Part shown: in pieces, positions 4,109-9,995 of the stretch | Position numbering within the stretch: position 1 is the stretch's first letter | Layout: each line of letters opens with the position of its first letter | Origin: Escherichia phage vB_EcoM_SA21RB | Length of the DNA: 64,000 nucleotides | Sequence record: OL960580 | Reading direction: 5' to 3' (one strand) | Notes under the pieces: generated by a model | The model's input: only the letters and a program-made list of their open reading frames with translations | Databases searched by the model: none | What the model was told of the DNA's origin: nothing | Position numbers and translations under genes: made by a program

Positions 4109-4672
4109 TTATTTATCTAGTTTAGTTATTATAGCTTCTGCGGCAGCTTTTAGCTTAGATGCGGTGTTAATACGATTTTTAATTTCAGTATACGCATCGC
4201 CAAGAACATCAAGGCTATCAGAATAAACACTTACACTATTGCGTTCGCTATTTGAAATAGAACCTTTAGTTTTACGATCAAAATCGGTGTACACGTCTTG
4301 AAGATCACGGGCTGCCTTCTTTGCATCATCCAATGCGTCAAGAGCTTTATTCAAAGCATTAACGTATTTTTTAGTGTCAAACATATTCTTAGAAATTTTA
4401 ACAGGTGCGCGTTCAGGAGTAGCTAATGTAGATTTAGGAACCTGAGCGCCAGATGCCAATTTCTTAGAAATTTTGAAAAACGCTTTATTGAATTTATTTT
4501 CTTGACTCATCGTAAAAGAACTATTATCGATGTTGTACATTTCAATAGCTTTAGCTTTCCACTTAAGAAAATCGCCGCGGTCTTTTGGGTCCAAGTGGAA
4601 GAATACTTTAGTAAGATCTGCTTCAGATGGTAATTTTGCTGCTTCGGTTAAAAATTCGGCATAGGTTTTCAT
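4109..4672 (-). CDS. capsid internal protein with N-terminal capsid targeting sequence (IPIII-like)
   Basis: ORF track; N-terminus MKTYAEFLTE matches the T4 internal-protein leader cleaved by gp21 after L-x-E; AAGGA SD. Confidence 0.6.
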   Translation of the reverse strand: MKTYAEFLTEAAKLPSEADLTKVFFHLDPKDRGDFLKWKAKAIEMYNIDNSSFTMSQENKFNKAFFKISKKLASGAQVPKSTLATPERAPVKISKNMFDTKKYVNALNKALDALDDAKKAARDLQDVYTDFDRKTKGSISNSERNSVSVYSDSLDVLGDAYTEIKNRINTASKLKAAAEAIITKLDK

Positions 4673-4796: not shown

Positions 4797-5270
4797 TTAT
4801 TTGATTTGTTTAGCAGACCAAATGCGGTCTTTGATGATTTTTTGAATGTCTTCAACATACTCTAGGTCATGAGCATGTGGGTTATCTTTGAAACTATAGG
4901 CACGGGCTAACTTTTGGCCTTCGGTTTTGATTACTAAAAGCTCTTTAAGGATAGCTTCATACTTAGCGATAATTCCTTTAACAATATTTTTTTCTTGTGT
5001 AGCTTTAGGATCTGCTTTAGGAGCAGGTTTACCCGAAGCCTTTGCAAAAGCAGCACCAGTAGCAACTAAACTTTTCCAGGCCATACTAACCGCATTTCCC
5101 GTAAATCCTTCTGCTTTCATGTCGCGAGCAAATTGGAATCGTGATTCGTCAGAAGCATCTTTATAGGAATATTTACCTGCTGCAATGGCTGCTTTTGCGA
5201 CAGCTTGAATTTCGGTGCTAGATGCTTCATTTAACACCGCTTCATTTAAAAATTGAGCATATGATTTCAT
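4797..5270 (-). CDS. capsid internal protein with capsid targeting sequence, Ala/Lys-rich basic cargo
   Basis: ORF track; N-terminus MKSYAQFLNE (leader-like); late promoter and AGGAAA SD upstream. Confidence 0.55.
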   Translation of the reverse strand: MKSYAQFLNEAVLNEASSTEIQAVAKAAIAAGKYSYKDASDESRFQFARDMKAEGFTGNAVSMAWKSLVATGAAFAKASGKPAPKADPKATQEKNIVKGIIAKYEAILKELLVIKTEGQKLARAYSFKDNPHAHDLEYVEDIQKIIKDRIWSAKQIK

Positions 5271-5310
5271 CTTATTTCCTGTTTTAATTCGTAGATTTAA
5301 TATACTACTA

Positions 5311-5318
5311 TATTTATA
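5311..5318 (-). promoter_or_regulatory. T4 late promoter TATAAATA upstream of internal protein gene
   Basis: Exact reverse-complement TATAAATA about 40 nt upstream of ATG at 5270. Confidence 0.55.
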
Positions 5319-5320
5319 CT

Positions 5321-5347
5321 AAAAAGCCCCAACCTTTCGGTTGGGGC
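5321..5347 (-). terminator. rho-independent terminator at 3-prime end of the tRNA/stable RNA operon
   Basis: 9-bp GC-rich stem GCCCCAACC/GGTTGGGGC, TTTC loop, U-run on minus strand. Confidence 0.6.
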
Positions 5348-5350
5348 TAA

Positions 5351-5664
5351 GCCTTGCGGCAACCTTGTCGGGGTTCCACCTGCTAAGGCAAGTGTTTGTA
5401 CGAAACGCCGGGATTCGAACCCGGTTATTAAGCAGTTGACGCTACTTAATATTTTTAAAAGGCCATATCTCGACCATATCCGAACGTTCCGTCAAAAACG
5501 CTACTCGGCTTACGGCAAAGATATTTCCTCGAATCGATAATTCGGTGCGCCGTTTCTGCTGTGGTGTAAGGGGATATTAATAAATCGTAAAGATTTATTA
5601 AGACCAGTCCTTACGCAGGGAACATCAGTCCGACGACTTACCGGTAGCGACCCGGTTTCTTGTT
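5351..5664 (-). ncRNA. structured stable-RNA region downstream of tRNA-Arg, containing a tRNA-like domain; probable counterpart of T4 stable RNAs C and D
   Basis: No ORF; tRNA-like T-arm CCGGG-TTCGAAT-CCCGG with pairing acceptor arms CGGAACG/CGTTTCG plus several further hairpins; boundaries not determined. Confidence 0.35.
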
Positions 5665-5740
5665 TGGTCGAGGCAGTAGGGATCGAACCTACGACCTAGG
5701 ACTTAGAAGGTCCTTGCTCTTCCTTCTGAGCTATGCCCCG
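5665..5740 (-). tRNA. tRNA-Arg (anticodon UCU)
   Basis: Manual cloverleaf: acceptor CGGGGCA/TGCCTCG, anticodon loop CTTCTAA, T-loop TTCGATC, CCA encoded. Confidence 0.8.
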
Positions 5741-5744
5741 TAAT

Positions 5745-5820
5745 TGGGGTGACCGATGGGAGTCGAACCCATGACTACGAGAATCACAATCTCGAGTTCT
5801 ACCAACTGAACTACGGCCAC
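5745..5820 (-). tRNA. tRNA-His (anticodon GUG)
   Basis: Manual cloverleaf: acceptor GTGGCCG/CGGTCAC, anticodon loop TTGTGAT, T-loop TTCGACT, CCA encoded; no encoded G-1. Confidence 0.6.
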
Positions 5821-5934
5821 ATTAATACCTACTCCAACAATCAAGATGTCTTCACACGAAATTAAGAGAAGAGTGATCAGTTCAACCCCGATAATCGCGT
5901 CAAGTAGATATTAATGTGACAGTTGTCACAAATT

Positions 5935-6009
5935 TGGCGGACGTGATAGGATTCGAACCTATAACCAATCGCTTAACAGGCGATCGCTCTGCCATTGAGC
6001 TACACATCC
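5935..6009 (-). tRNA. tRNA-Asn (anticodon GUU)
   Basis: Manual cloverleaf: acceptor GGATGTG/CACGTCC, anticodon loop CTGTTAA, T-loop TTCGAAT, CCA encoded. Confidence 0.7.
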
Positions 6010-6013
6010 AAAT

Positions 6014-6100
6014 TGGTGGGGAGTGATGGAGTCGAACCACCCGAGTCGCAATGACAATGGATTTACAGTCCACACCGCTACCTCTACGGGATAACTCCCC
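6014..6100 (-). tRNA. tRNA-Tyr (anticodon GUA), class II with long variable arm
   Basis: Manual fold: acceptor GGGGAGT/ACTCCCC, anticodon loop CTGTAAA, T-loop TTCGACT, 87 nt, CCA encoded. Confidence 0.65.
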
Positions 6101-6113
6101 TTAATTCTTAATT

Positions 6114-6188
6114 TGGTGGCCCTGGGTGGAATTGAACCACCATCTGGCGATTATGAGTCGCTTGCTTGAACCTTCCAGCTACAGGGCC
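6114..6188 (-). tRNA. tRNA with anticodon CAU; by position the T4 tRNA-Ile (lysidine type) homolog, Met not excluded
   Basis: Manual cloverleaf: acceptor GGCCCTG/CAGGGCC, anticodon loop CTCATAA, T-loop TTCAATT, CCA encoded. Confidence 0.7.
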
Positions 6189-6189
6189 T

Positions 6190-6265
6190 TGGTGCTGATT
6201 GACGGAATCGAACCGCCGACCTTCTCATTACAAGTGAGTTGCTCTACCTACTGAGCTAAATCAGC
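6190..6265 (-). tRNA. tRNA-Thr (anticodon UGU)
   Basis: Manual cloverleaf: acceptor GCTGATT/AATCAGC, anticodon loop CTTGTAA, T-loop TTCGATT, CCA encoded. Confidence 0.8.
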
Positions 6266-6270
6266 AAAAC

Positions 6271-6360
6271 TGGCGGAGGCGATAGGATTTGAACCTATGA
6301 GTCGCCGGAGCGACTGCCGGTTTTCAAGACCGGTGCATTAAACCACTCTGCCACGCCTCC
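6271..6360 (-). tRNA. tRNA-Ser (anticodon UGA), class II
   Basis: Manual fold: acceptor GGAGGCG/CGCCTCC, anticodon loop CTTGAAA, long variable arm, T-loop TTCAAAT, 90 nt. Confidence 0.8.
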
Positions 6361-6362
6361 AG

Positions 6363-6436
6363 TCTCCATACAAGGATTTGAACCTTGGACCTCCTGATCC
6401 CAAATCAGGCGCTCTACCAAACTGAGCTACACGGAG
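6363..6436 (-). tRNA. tRNA-Pro (anticodon UGG), CCA not encoded
   Basis: Manual cloverleaf: acceptor CTCCGTG/TATGGAG, anticodon loop TTTGGGA, T-loop TTCAAAT; 2 nt from tRNA-Ser, consistent with a dimeric precursor. Confidence 0.75.
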
Positions 6437-6446
6437 TAAATTAAAT

Positions 6447-6520
<74 letters not shown>

Positions 6521-6525
6521 AAATT

Positions 6526-6612
6526 TGGTGCGAGAAGTGGGACTCGAACCCACAAGGAAATCATTCCGCAGCATTTTAAGTGCTGTGCCTTTACCAATTT
6601 GACCATTCTCGC
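6526..6612 (-). tRNA. tRNA-Leu (anticodon UAA), class II
   Basis: Manual fold: acceptor GCGAGAA/TTCTCGC, anticodon loop CTTAAAA, long variable arm, T-loop TTCGAGT, CCA encoded. Confidence 0.8.
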
Positions 6613-6613
6613 G

Positions 6614-6686
6614 CTGGGAATAAAGGACTCGAACCTTTGCATCCTGGAATCAAAATCCAGTGCCTTACCAACTTGGCTAATTCCCA
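6614..6686 (-). tRNA. tRNA-Gln (anticodon UUG), CCA not encoded, 1 nt from tRNA-Leu
   Basis: Manual cloverleaf: acceptor TGGGAAT/ATTCCCA (U1-A72), anticodon loop TTTTGAT, T-loop TTCGAGT. Confidence 0.8.
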
Positions 6687-6772
6687 ATTATTAACAAAGG
6701 CTCTCTAACAAGAACCCTTGATGATATAGGGTATTAATCAGTGCGGTATGAGTTAATAATAACAAATAATTC

Positions 6773-7288
6773 TTAAAGCAAATTAAACATCTTAACGGTC
6801 GGCAAAACAATTTCTTCTTCTATATAAGAGTATTTAACACTCTCAACTACACGCAAAAAATCATAATCATAATATTCAGAAGCACTGCCTAAAATATTAA
6901 TAAGTCCTTCAAGCACTTTATTACCATTCACAAAGAATAAGTCAAATACACGTTCTTCGTCTTCTTCGGATTTATTACCAAGGTCAACTTCTATATCAAA
7001 GACCTTTTTAATGAATTCTGGATAAAGCTGGTCTGAGAACAGTCCTTCAACCAAGTATTCATAGATAAAAAGCGATTGCTCGCTGAACAAACCATTACCG
7101 CAATAACGTTCAACTTTTGTGCTAGAATGTCTGCTTTTAAACTTCTTTAAAAGATATTGGAATTGTAAGATTTCATGCTCTTCTACGCCAAACAGTGTTT
7201 TAGTTTTATAGTTGTCACCATCATTTTCCCAGGTAGTGACATCAATTACGTAACCCTGCGGAATTGTAGTACCTAAACAAATATTCAT
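6773..7288 (-). CDS. hypothetical strongly acidic protein, early region
   Basis: ORF track; about 20 percent Asp/Glu; no recognisable motif. Confidence 0.5.
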   Translation of the reverse strand: MNICLGTTIPQGYVIDVTTWENDGDNYKTKTLFGVEEHEILQFQYLLKKFKSRHSSTKVERYCGNGLFSEQSLFIYEYLVEGLFSDQLYPEFIKKVFDIEVDLGNKSEEDEERVFDLFFVNGNKVLEGLINILGSASEYYDYDFLRVVESVKYSYIEEEIVLPTVKMFNLL

Positions 7289-7578
7289 TTGCTCACCATA
7301 TTAATGTAAGTATATTCAATACATTCAAGACCCAAAGGATTCTTGAAAATATCATATTCAAGAGGACCTTTTTCTGTTTCAATAAAGAAATCAAAATTTA
7401 CTGTGTTAAATTTACGGTCTTCCTTCACCAATTTAACTTGAGAAGATGAACGGTCAATGTAAACCTTTTCAACTTCAAAACATGTTAAAATGCCATAATC
7501 ATCAATCAAGGCTTTAGCCGCGTCTTGATCATATTTATATCCATTTTCAATTGACGATACTTTAGCATAAAGAATCAT
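7285..7578 (-). CDS. hypothetical acidic protein
   Basis: ORF track; ATGA overlap with upstream gene. Confidence 0.5.
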   Translation of the reverse strand: MILYAKVSSIENGYKYDQDAAKALIDDYGILTCFEVEKVYIDRSSSQVKLVKEDRKFNTVNFDFFIETEKGPLEYDIFKNPLGLECIEYTYINMVSK

Positions 7579-7580
7579 TA

Positions 7581-7961
7581 TCAGCCTTCATCAACAATAG
7601 TATGAGTGTGGGCATTTACAATTTGCCACCAATCAAAGCGATTAGAACCATACATCGGTTTGTTTTCATTTTCTTTGATAATATCACGGAGTTCATCTTC
7701 GGTAGCGGCTTTCGCGATTAAATCAGCATATCCACCACGAGGATAATAATTATCACCTGCAAAAAGTAAAAAGTTCGGTTTAATATTATTGAACTCTTCA
7801 AGAGTAATAACTTTTCCTGTCGGTTGAACAATCTCTACATATTTATATCCTAATTTTTGAGCAGCATCTACTGCTTCAAGCAAAGTATCATGAGCCCATC
7901 CAATTTGACAACCTGGCTTTTCAGATGGATTAGCCTGATAATCCGCGTACACTTTATACAT
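7581..7961 (-). CDS. hypothetical protein
   Basis: ORF track (7581..8000); likelier start is ATG at 7961 (MYKVYADY) with GGTGA SD, 1 nt after the upstream stop. Confidence 0.5.
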   Translation of the reverse strand: MYKVYADYQANPSEKPGCQIGWAHDTLLEAVDAAQKLGYKYVEIVQPTGKVITLEEFNNIKPNFLLFAGDNYYPRGGYADLIAKAATEDELRDIIKENENKPMYGSNRFDWWQIVNAHTHTIVDEG

Positions 7962-7962
7962 T

Positions 7963-8148
7963 CTATTCACCTTTAGAAATTTTATCCATAACGATAGCAA
8001 TTAAACCAATTAAAAATGCTACTACAAGTGAAAAAACATTTTCTGCTGTAGTTAATAATCCGCATATAAATCCAACAAACATTGAAAAACTAAAAGCAGA
8101 AGCAGAAATTGCAATAGCAACATTTCGAATTAATTCACAACGTTTCAT
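7963..8148 (-). CDS. small hydrophobic membrane protein (61 aa)
   Basis: ORF track; two hydrophobic stretches; own early-type promoter upstream. Confidence 0.45.
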   Translation of the reverse strand: MKRCELIRNVAIAISASAFSFSMFVGFICGLLTTAENVFSLVVAFLIGLIAIVMDKISKGE

Positions 8149-8176
8149 TTTATTCTCCTCAGTAGTTGATAGGGTA

Positions 8177-8206
8177 ATAGTATCACAACTAAAACCCTAT
8201 GTAAAC
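8177..8206 (-). promoter_or_regulatory. T4 early-type promoter (GTTTAC-N18-TACTAT)
   Basis: Same module as 3913-3942 and 8543-8572, including the conserved flanking TTTCACAAAGTTGTTTAC. Confidence 0.55.
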
Positions 8207-8224
8207 AACTTTGTGAAATATTTA

Positions 8225-8512
8225 TTACAAAAGATTTTTAGCAATAATCTTGAGATGTGCCGCAGAAATGTGTTTAGCTTTAAACAACGCAGTTTCTTCA
8301 GCAGGAGAGATAACGATTGTAGCACCATCCTTTTTAGCAGACCACCCATCGCCTAGGTAAACAGTACCTTTGATTTCTTCGCCATCAACCAGACTAATCA
8401 TTGGTTTACCTTCTCGTCCTTTATTTGCTTTAATAACTTCAGAAGTAAGAGTAGCTTCGGTAATAGTAGAAACCGGGGTAGTTGTAGAAGTAAATTCTTT
8501 GAAAGTTTTCAT
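8225..8512 (-). CDS. ipI: internal protein I precursor (95 aa; 19-aa capsid targeting leader plus 76-aa mature IPI*), injected anti-restriction protein
   Basis: ORF track; leader MKTFKEFTSTTTPVSTITE ends in a gp21 I-x-E cleavage motif; 95/76 aa lengths and position next to 57B match T4 ipI. Confidence 0.8.
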   Translation of the reverse strand: MKTFKEFTSTTTPVSTITEATLTSEVIKANKGREGKPMISLVDGEEIKGTVYLGDGWSAKKDGATIVISPAEETALFKAKHISAAHLKIIAKNLL

Positions 8513-8542
8513 TTTATTTTCCTAATTAATTTTGATGAGATA

Positions 8543-8572
8543 ATAGTATCACTACCTCATCAACGTGTAAAC
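8543..8572 (-). promoter_or_regulatory. T4 early-type promoter upstream of ipI (GTTTAC-N18-TACTAT)
   Basis: Minus-strand -35/-10 elements about 30 nt upstream of ipI ATG. Confidence 0.55.
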
Positions 8573-8584
8573 AACTTTGTGAAA

Positions 8585-9281
<697 letters not shown>

Positions 9282-9282
<1 letters not shown>

Positions 9283-9995
9283 TATAGTACCTTTAGTGTA
9301 TTTTTAATTTTAGAAAAAAGTTCTTCAAGAGAACCATCGTTTGTAATTACTAAATCGCCATCACGAATTGGCAATCCAGCTTCTGTAATATGAGTATCAT
9401 TGGATTTTTGACCAGGACGAACTACATGAATTACTGTAGCACCCATCGCCCTAGCCGCATCCATTTCATGATCTTGACGAGTATCAGGAACGATATAATA
9501 ATCATAACCTGAGTTAAATTTATCAAGATAATCTAAAGCAAATAATTTTACCCAATACATGCGGTCGAAGTTATTAACAATCAAATCCGTACCTAGGGCT
9601 TGCATCAGACGACGGACTGACCATTGATCTTCAATATTATTTATAACGTCAGCAATCTTGTTAAATGCTACGAAATTAACTGCGTCATCAAAAACAAACA
9701 CACCTTTAATTGGGCTTTTACTATTAAGATAACAAAATGCTTGTTCCATAATCGTAATTACTTCTAATTTAGTCAGATTTAAATTAGTCTCACGATCATA
9801 GTCAATTCCTTCAAACTCTTTACGAGTTAAGCAAGGATAGTCAGTGTTTGCTGCAAATACGCCCCATGCATAAGCCAATGCATCTTTAATAGGACCAGCA
9901 AGTTGATATTTAACTGCAGAATAATTATTCATGATAAAATCTGCAGTAGTATCTTTTCCACTACGCTTTACACCACTTAAAAAGATTAGTTTCAT
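9282..9995 (-). CDS. 1: deoxynucleoside monophosphate kinase gp1
   Basis: ORF track; P-loop GVKRSGKDT; T4 gene order 57A-1-3-2-4. Confidence 0.9.

Follow-up and report, generated by a model that had tools for sequence, protein, structure and literature searches.

Four minus-strand open reading frames (ORFs) between ipI and the tRNA genes of Escherichia phage vB_EcoM_SA21RB (sequence record OL960580) are best read as accessory genes, early and dispensable, that precede the tRNA array, with ORF171 as a candidate tRNA-linked or counter-defence factor; we put the probability of this reading at about 0.55. The analysis covered a stretch of 64,000 nucleotides (nt) of this phage, called the window throughout. 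Three of the ORFs are plain orthologues of the T4 genes trna.4, trna.3 and trna.2, whereas ORF171, of 171 amino acids (aa), belongs to a large, phage-only and previously undescribed family. In minus-strand order, the four genes are:

7963..8148, minus strand: ORF61, trna.4 orthologue, 61 aa, first gene behind the early promoter
7581..7961, minus strand: ORF126, trna.3 orthologue, 126 aa, ATG start, N-terminal half an alternative allele
7285..7578, minus strand: ORF97, trna.2 orthologue, 97 aa, moderately acidic
6773..7288, minus strand: ORF171, 171 aa, phage-only WENDxD family (phrog_2290), without counterpart in the syntenic T4 interval

A first-pass annotation of the window had placed four minus-strand ORFs of 171, 97, 126 and 61 aa within 6773-8148, and these coordinates proved exact. 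All four are real genes and not chance ORFs, since every one matches a PHROG family (E-values from 1e-35 to 1e-68) and has hundreds of phage homologues. Their packing is operon-like: two of them overlap by 4 nt (ATGA), and the other junctions leave gaps of 2 nt and 1 nt. For ORF126 the 126-aa reading is the correct one, because its ATG is preceded by an AGGTGA ribosome-binding site and the T4 orthologue begins at the equivalent methionine; the TTG extension to 8000 (139 aa) has no such site. The best matches of region 5500-9500 are Tequatrovirus genomes with up to 98% identity, Shigella phage Sf22 and Enterobacteria phage Aplg8 at the top, and on these matches the window is assigned to Tequatrovirus. 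The RefSeq annotation of Aplg8 (NC_054902; L001, 3048-3645 and 3940-4327) shows no coding sequence at ORF171 and trna.3 despite 98% identical DNA, which is an annotation gap.

The first-pass annotation had left all four ORFs unassigned, which does not stand for three of them. ORF61 is 100% identical to T4 Trna.4 over 61 aa, matches phrog_1692 (E-value = 6e-35) and keeps its T4 position just downstream of ipI and behind an early promoter. Trna.4 homologues occur in 790 phage records, 428 of them at an identity of at least 99%. ORF97 presents 95.6% identity with T4 Trna.2 over 91 of its 97 aa and matches phrog_2023 (E-value = 1.8e-48); its homologues carry PF27001, and the family does not reach beyond close T4 relatives (at least 71% identity). 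At its C-terminal end Trna.2 departs from T4, because the downstream sequence diverges there. ORF126 has 58% identity with T4 Trna.3 and matches phrog_1411 over residues 1-126 (E-value = 2.5e-55); its homologues carry PF26894, a family known from their annotation and not scored directly against ORF126. The low identity is due to the N-terminal half, which differs and occurs in two types, while the C-terminal half, with the motif NFLLFAGDNYYPxGGY...WWQIVNA, is nearly invariant across 21 homologues. Trna.3 consists of two alpha/beta domains, the N-terminal half being an alternative allele. The T4 proteins Trna.2, Trna.3 and Trna.4 (NP_049746, NP_049747 and NP_049748; UniProt P13324, P13323 and P13322, respectively) are encoded in the same order and at the same place between ipI and the tRNA array; unlike in T4, the N-terminal half of Trna.3 is exchanged and the last residues of Trna.2 are changed in the window. 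Paralogy was considered and rejected, as hhalign probabilities for Trna.2 against both the ORF171 family and Trna.3 were below 1%, indicating unrelated proteins.

These three genes are named but uncharacterised in T4. Our literature search on them returned no functional characterisation beyond a DRT1 pull-down, omics timing and transposon essentiality. The view of the first-pass annotation that the genes are early is borne out by the T4 data: according to the supplement of PMC9697503, trna.2 and trna.3 give early RNA and protein, and trna.4 gives early RNA, its protein being listed as undetected. The supplements of bioRxiv 10.1101/2025.11.20.689424 report all three T4 genes as non-essential on E. 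coli K-12 in a transposon library, and likewise three Bas37 genes of like size and position, which we took as their counterparts; one conditional comparison per phage (T4 and Bas37) in the same supplements gave no significant change for these genes. Orthology of every ORF to characterised T4 genes was the finding that the first-pass annotation had named as speaking against its proposal. This is not what was found: three ORFs are orthologous to T4 genes, but these are uncharacterised, so that they do not overturn the proposal, and ORF171 has no counterpart in the syntenic interval. The three ORFs should be labelled trna.4, trna.3 and trna.2, and the locus regarded as an ordinary T-even accessory early region.

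No family match for any of the four ORFs was found in Pfam, NCBIfam or PADLOC, where the Acb1 model matches only the neighbouring 57B, and the PHROG matches are all to families of 'unknown function'. Features of internal proteins are likewise missing from the four: inspection of the N-termini showed no capsid-targeting sequence of the MKT..EF...E type, and the IPI_T4 domain matches ipI only. Profile searches of PDB sequences were empty for Trna.3 and Trna.2.

Concerning ORF171, no counterpart was found in T4 positions 68-76 kilobases (kb), the T4 stretch searched. In the DNA alignment about 538 nt of the window (about 7318-6781) stand against 31 unrelated nt in T4, and homology resumes at TGCTTTAAGAATT, which is at once the last codons of ORF171 and the MotA box. 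Judging from this alignment, the syntenic T4 interval lost ORF171 or never had it, and a reference interval without the gene may be one reason why the family is unstudied. The protein matches phrog_2290 end to end (residues 1-170, E-value = 1.5e-68) with all family-invariant positions present. This family includes hypothetical proteins of T2, RB32, RB18, JD18 and AhFM11, and homologues of ORF171 were found in 573 cultured-phage records. Identity is 98% with RB32 and 88% with T2, RB18 falling within 88-98%; it is 28-44% with T4-like phages of Klebsiella, Enterobacter, Erwinia, Citrobacter and Aeromonas (34-36% with the proteins of JD18, JD18_126, and of AhFM11), and distant relatives are found in Sinorhizobium and Xanthomonas phages. 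Among close T4 relatives ORF171 is a variable gene, because approximately 249 records hold a copy of at least 80% identity compared with 654 for Trna.4. At this locus it counts as the older resident, since Aeromonas phage AhFM11 carries its homologue in the same slot, with a 57B homologue on one side and the tRNAs on the other, and with annotated neighbours that match none of Trna.2, Trna.3 and Trna.4.

A profile search of 1.84 billion representative proteins gave 1,022 clusters up to an E-value of 1e-3 (525 up to 1e-10), nearly all of them single-domain proteins of 120-200 aa. A 7,571-aa repetitive protein from this search (P0086, 21 stretches) was discarded as a compositional artefact. In 153 representatives, residues G12, W20, E21, N22, D23, D25, F50, G64, N65 and R146 are 95-100% conserved (W-E-N-D-x-D...G-N...R), and the family is uniformly acidic (median isoelectric point, pI, of 4.47; median net charge of -14). 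A likeness of the motif region to sensors based on green fluorescent protein (DDGNYKT) is coincidental. All diverse members tested (34/34) match phrog_2290; no Pfam model for the family exists in the local copy or in precomputed annotations, and our search found no literature on phrog_2290. The family is effectively phage-only: in one genome each of 185,579 bacterial and archaeal species it turned up on no more than three contigs, which all came from metagenome bins, and on the same count a bacterial origin or a toxin-immunity setting was rejected.

The surroundings of the gene point to tRNA arrays. We collected 80 IMG/VR loci with ORF171 relatives, with up to 6 kb of flank each where the contig allowed, and ran ARAGORN on all of them. 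tRNA genes lie within 6 kb in 38 of the 80 loci (321 tRNAs, all on the strand of the ORF171 homologue), and in 18 loci they are found on both sides of it. Grouping the homologues at 40% identity (average linkage on global alignment) resulted in 30 lineages, of which 21 carry a tRNA at a distance of up to 6 kb, 17 at up to 3 kb and 12 at up to 1 kb. The homologue is wedged between tRNAs, or is 15-65 nt from one, in L055, L030, L083 and L022, and the association with tRNAs is also seen in jumbo-phage contigs of 355-378 kb (L021, L038, L040 and L062) and in the cultured Salmonella jumbo phage SE_PL. The tRNA density of the flanks (0.355 per kb) is several-fold higher than the approximately 0.07 per kb that 11 tRNAs in a 167-kb genome would give. 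Of the 28 representatives without the T4-like gene order, 8 carry a tRNA no more than 3 kb away. On L067, a viral contig of 139 kb, a transfer-messenger RNA gene at 6396-6713 is located just downstream of the homologue, within a 14-tRNA array, and in the 116-kb contig L083 a tRNA with the amber-reading CTA anticodon (5907-5983) is located 15 nt upstream of it. A homologue of gp30.3 (Pfam Phage_30_3, E-value = 4.6e-56) directly follows the ORF171 homologue in JD18 (L004, 3559-4008) and also in L013, L015, L023 and L027; T4 gene 30.3 has been reported to be the anti-DarTG factor AdfN (HIDEN-SEQ preprint, 2025).

The AlphaFold2 model of ORF171 (predicted local distance difference test, pLDDT, 88.8; predicted template modelling score, pTM, 0.83) comprises a beta hairpin (12-21, 25-35), five helices and a last strand (147-156), and describes a soluble alpha/beta protein with a three-stranded sheet predicted to pack against helices. 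In the model the hairpin turn carries WENDxD, a loop holds GN, and R146 stands where the last strand begins; from this secondary-structure map we infer that the invariant residues come together in a single site. The matches that Foldseek gave in BFVD were all uncharacterised phage proteins, and no convincing structural relative was found in PDB, where single-sequence and profile searches of the sequences also gave no relatives.

The regulatory signals and the flanking genes bear on how the four genes and the tRNAs are expressed, and are as follows:

8225..8512, minus strand: ipI, internal protein I, Pfam IPI_T4 (E-value = 7e-54), 100% identical to T4
5665..6686, minus strand: tRNA array of 11 genes (ARAGORN and Rfam), directly downstream of ORF171 and on the same strand
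8177..8206, minus strand: T4-type early promoter, GTTTACA-17-TACTAT (GTTTACA-17-TGATACTAT), preceded by TG, upstream of the four-gene block
8543..8572, minus strand: ipI twin early promoter, with an upstream 20-nt block identical to that of the trna.4 promoter
6756..6782, minus strand: middle promoter of the MotA type, TTTGCTTTA-12-TATTAT, lying over the stop codon of ORF171 and immediately ahead of the tRNA array
5325..5348, minus strand: strong terminator-like hairpin, 10 bp with 7 G-C pairs and a T run, which probably ends the unit

The 61-aa gene had been credited in the first-pass annotation with an early promoter of its own at 8177-8206. The promoter does match the T4 early consensus, but it probably serves the whole four-gene block, because no promoter motif is present in the 1-2-nt or overlapping junctions between the four genes; sigma-70-like matches within the ORFs are at chance level. 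The T4-early pattern has 7 sites in the 64 kb, all on the minus strand, and is much rarer than generic sigma-70 sites, whose scan of the region was not above chance (13 sites versus 10.9 expected). The early promoters of ipI and trna.4 (8543-8606 and 8177-8240, minus strand) share the 20-nt block ATTTCACAAAGTTGTTTACA and agree in their -10 region, GTGATACTAT, so that on their sequence the promoters either side of ipI look like a duplicated cassette. The MotA-type promoter is the only strict middle-promoter match within 5300-9400. For T4, PMC2330249, citing Broida and Abelson (1985), places a middle promoter 'just upstream of the tRNA gene cluster'; its transcript traverses the cluster and stops past the species I RNA. 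The MotA promoter of the window corresponds to this one. The hairpin at 5325-5348 follows the sequence aligned with the annotated rnaD/rnaC of Aplg8 and agrees with the T4 transcript end past the gene for species I RNA. From the 8206 promoter, early transcripts would read through the four genes into the tRNA array, since no convincing terminator is found between 8177 and the hairpin at 5348-5325, and the MotA promoter would strengthen tRNA synthesis later in infection. Late-promoter-like TATAAATA motifs were also seen on the minus strand within trna.3 (7847) and trna.2 (7539), and a third one at 5318, just past the terminator.

As regards function, all four proteins would be accessory host-interaction proteins of the kind that fills this hyperplastic, anti-defence-rich locus, which ipI and 57B/Acb1 flank in the window; the ORF171 homologue of JD18 is followed by the gp30.3 (AdfN) relative. 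ORF171 may be tied to tRNA or translation supply, given its co-location with tRNA genes. Its target would be universally conserved, because the polar residues are invariant in phages of enterobacteria, Aeromonas, Xanthomonas, Sinorhizobium and uncultured hosts, and the protein would most likely use them (W20, E21, N22, D23, D25, N65 and R146) to bind a ligand or target of that kind. It might block a host tRNA-directed nuclease or, alternatively, assist the handling of phage tRNAs; the negative charge seen throughout the family suits a decoy or inhibitor more than a protein that binds RNA directly. The tRNase-colicin immunity proteins ImmD and ImmE5 are small, acidic, tRNA-mimicking proteins that block tRNA-cleaving nucleases, and as a conceptual analogue only, such a role would suit an acidic protein travelling with tRNA genes. 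In contrast to these proteins, ORF171 has no sequence or convincing fold match to them in PDB searches and, unlike toxin-immunity pairs, its family is essentially absent from bacterial genomes. That ORF171 protects or services the phage tRNA supply is proposed here with low confidence. The more specific proposal is tentative, and we would give it only a minor share of the odds: the family, with its WENDxD/GN/R site, would be tied to tRNA arrays as a decoy or inhibitor against host tRNA-targeting defence nucleases, or as a new tRNA-handling cofactor. If true, such a link to tRNA supply or to tRNA-targeting immunity would help to explain why large phages carry tRNA islands, and would add a protein component to the emerging view of phage tRNA arrays as counter-defence modules. 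In any case the family is a sharpened target, being large, virus-restricted, absent from Pfam and enriched in tRNA arrays, with a confident fold and a few polar residues that are invariant across hosts.

Several points weigh against reading the four genes, and ORF171 in particular, in this way. No experiment or homology assigns a function to any of the four proteins. In 42 of the 80 loci the flanks of up to 6 kb are free of tRNA genes, as are the 4 kb around the homologue of Xanthomonas phage BUDD, and the proximity counts cover these loci and their flanks rather than whole genomes. Ten of 38 representative loci carry genes 1, 57A, 57B and 3 nearby, so that the association is partly inherited T4-like synteny, and co-location need not mean shared function, tRNA islands being general dumping grounds for small accessory genes. 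The idea of a conserved partner gene was discarded, since the 125 neighbouring ORFs of 15 loci gave a mixed Pfam census and no gene recurred as a partner outside T4-like phages. ORF171 is not needed for basic tRNA biogenesis, because T4, whose interval is without it, matures its tRNAs and grows normally, and an acidic protein is unlikely to be a direct RNA binder. The early read-through into the tRNAs leans in addition on what Broida and Abelson reportedly described in 1985. In the T4 literature (PMC2330249), tRNA transcripts are said to come primarily from the middle promoter.

The same evidence admits other explanations. ORF171 could be a small metal-dependent enzyme or cofactor that acts on phage tRNAs (maturation, repair or modification) and is co-expressed with them: in the model, E21, N22, D23, D25, N65 and R146 around the hairpin turn resemble a metal or phosphate site, the homologue is embedded between tRNA genes in many lineages, and tRNA enzymes (Thg1, class I aminoacyl-tRNA synthetase) are present in some neighbourhoods. 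These enzymes are, however, sporadic, with one locus each; the protein has no convincing fold or sequence likeness to any nuclease, transferase or RNA-binding protein and is strongly net negative. T4 processes its eight tRNAs, and its interval lacks ORF171. We consider such an enzyme improbable. That the four ORFs are functionless passengers of a hyperplastic region, the proximity of ORF171 to tRNAs being only inherited gene order, is hardly credible. The variable gene content of the locus, the absence of ORF171 from the syntenic T4 and the annotated Bas37 intervals, and the dispensability of all T4 orthologues (bioRxiv 10.1101/2025.11.20.689424, supplements) would agree with it, but the invariant residues of ORF171 are deeply conserved across more than 1,000 clusters and its model is confidently folded, Trna.4 is highly conserved in the 428 records mentioned, and tRNA proximity extends beyond the T4-like gene order in 8 of 28 representatives.

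The first-pass annotation had described ORF171 and ORF97 as strongly acidic, giving ORF171 about 20% Asp/Glu, and had proposed them as DNA mimics or host-factor inhibitors. Both are acidic, but with 17.5% Asp+Glu each, which is only moderate for this phage: among the 77 greedy-called ORFs of the window used as reference (median pI 5.21, median Asp+Glu 13.6%, the phage proteome being acidic itself) they are at the 91st and 90th percentile, respectively. Their pI values are 4.50 and 4.67 and their net charges -14 and -5; per residue this is -0.08 for ORF171 (9th percentile) and -0.05 for ORF97 (26th percentile, unremarkable). The proposal would place them with the DNA mimics T7 Ocr, ArdA and T4 Arn, or make them inhibitors of DNA-binding factors of the host (restriction enzymes or nucleases, for example); with those three proteins they share the small size, the acidity, the early expression and the vicinity of other anti-defence genes. 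The very high negative charge density of mimics such as Ocr and ArdA is not seen in ORF171 or ORF97, whose density is far lower, and ORF171 has an invariant polar motif in place of a patterned surface charge. The family-wide invariance of these polar residues points to a defined binding site for a ligand or target and not to mimicry by charge in general. Furthermore, PDB sequence, profile and Foldseek searches gave no sequence or convincing fold similarity to a known DNA mimic. The earlier proposal drew on acidity alone, and the searches lend it no convincing support. ORF171 is unlikely to be a generic DNA mimic, an explanation that we rate below the link to tRNA supply, and the joint proposal for the two ORFs is a poor prospect; nothing here favours annotating the acidic proteins as DNA mimics.

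Two more specific roles can be considered for the T4 orthologues. Trna.2 may engage the DRT1 defence as a trigger, as an inhibitor or as a binder of the DRT1 DNA adduct, given that T4 Trna.2, to which ORF97 is 95.6% identical, was one of just two T4 proteins, Inh being the other, whose enrichment with wild-type DRT1 over the reverse-transcriptase-dead control was significant (PMC13275509). The authors did not pursue this enrichment and deemed Trna.2 too narrowly distributed to explain DRT1 sensitivity (PMC13275509), a narrow spread borne out here by its restriction to close T4 relatives; DRT1 immunity was studied with T4 infection, which speaks against Trna.2 being an effective inhibitor, and the enrichment could be indirect. 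We therefore regard a DRT1 role as doubtful, although the pull-down is the only functional hint for trna.2, trna.3 and trna.4 in the literature and offers a second, directly testable lead.

For Trna.4, the hydrophobic character noted by the first-pass annotation is confirmed: with a grand average of hydropathy (GRAVY) of 1.22, ORF61 is the most hydrophobic ORF of the window. Its two hydrophobic segments (approximately residues 10-35 and 31-58), with a short polar loop between them and charged termini, make a two-span membrane hairpin likely on sequence grounds, and the protein would most likely act at the inner membrane. Small membrane proteins are often missed by proteomics. Trna.4 could thus be a membrane effector acting in superinfection exclusion, as a membrane toxin, or as an inhibitor of a membrane-bound host or defence protein. 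Its segments and termini, its place as first gene behind the early promoter and its conservation (at least 99% identity in 428 phage records) agree with such a role, as does the early trna.4 RNA despite the undetected protein (PMC9697503, supplement). It shares with the T4 superinfection exclusion membrane proteins Imm and Sp the small size, the early expression, the inner-membrane type and the two hydrophobic segments, but has no family-level similarity to them in Pfam, NCBIfam, PHROGs or PADLOC. Beyond phrog_1692 there is no family match, and no named membrane, holin or superinfection-immunity family was hit in Pfam at E<=1, the sub-threshold matches being DUF7554 (0.064) and DUF2721 (0.28) in Pfam and XapX (0.57) in NCBIfam. 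Moreover, the gene is non-essential and showed no significant fitness change in one conditional comparison (bioRxiv 10.1101/2025.11.20.689424, supplements). An effector of this kind is a speculative option.

The minus-strand gene order is gene 1 (deoxynucleoside monophosphate kinase), 57A, 57B, ipI, the four ORFs and the 11 tRNA genes. The description of the interval in the first-pass annotation as a variable accessory locus with anti-host genes is well founded. The locus is flanked by two genes with a proven anti-defence role, ipI and 57B, the latter of which matches Pfam Acb1 (E-value = 3e-60) and is 100% identical to the T4 protein, and the neighbouring ipI slot of Bas37 (between trna.4 and ipI) holds bas37_0260, a reported McrBC inhibitor. 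Gene content differs among close relatives in the presence of ORF171, the exchanged N-terminal half of Trna.3 and an additional gene before ipI in some phages. The latter is present in R5505 and Bas37, and a homing endonuclease lies between the trna.2-like gene of Bas37 and the tRNAs. In phage R5505 (L002, 3597-3830) and some relatives the additional gene, of 77 aa, lies between trna.4 and ipI and is missing from the window; it was matched to bas37_0260 by position only.

The tRNA array encodes tRNAs for Gln, Leu, Gly, Pro, Ser, Thr, Met, Tyr, Asn, His and Arg (11, compared with 8 in T4), and neither segB nor tRNA-Ile is present. The tRNA-Tyr is just above the Rfam threshold (30.2 bits versus 29), and no RNA was detected in the 114-nt gap between tRNA-His and tRNA-Asn (5821-5934). 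Between the array and the terminator (5349-5664), where T4 and Aplg8 annotate rnaD and rnaC, there was no Rfam match at gathering thresholds, and these small stable RNAs apparently have no Rfam family. Just past the terminator of the tRNA operon, two paralogous ORFs of 187 and 157 aa are found on the minus strand (4109-4672 and 4797-5270), both belonging to phrog_2280 (unknown function). Their N-termini are MKTYAEFLTEA and MKSYAQFLNEA, compared with MKTFKEFTS in IPI, and we take these starts to be like the N-terminal capsid-targeting sequence of T4 internal proteins. The pair may represent further injected internal proteins, and hence candidate anti-restriction factors.

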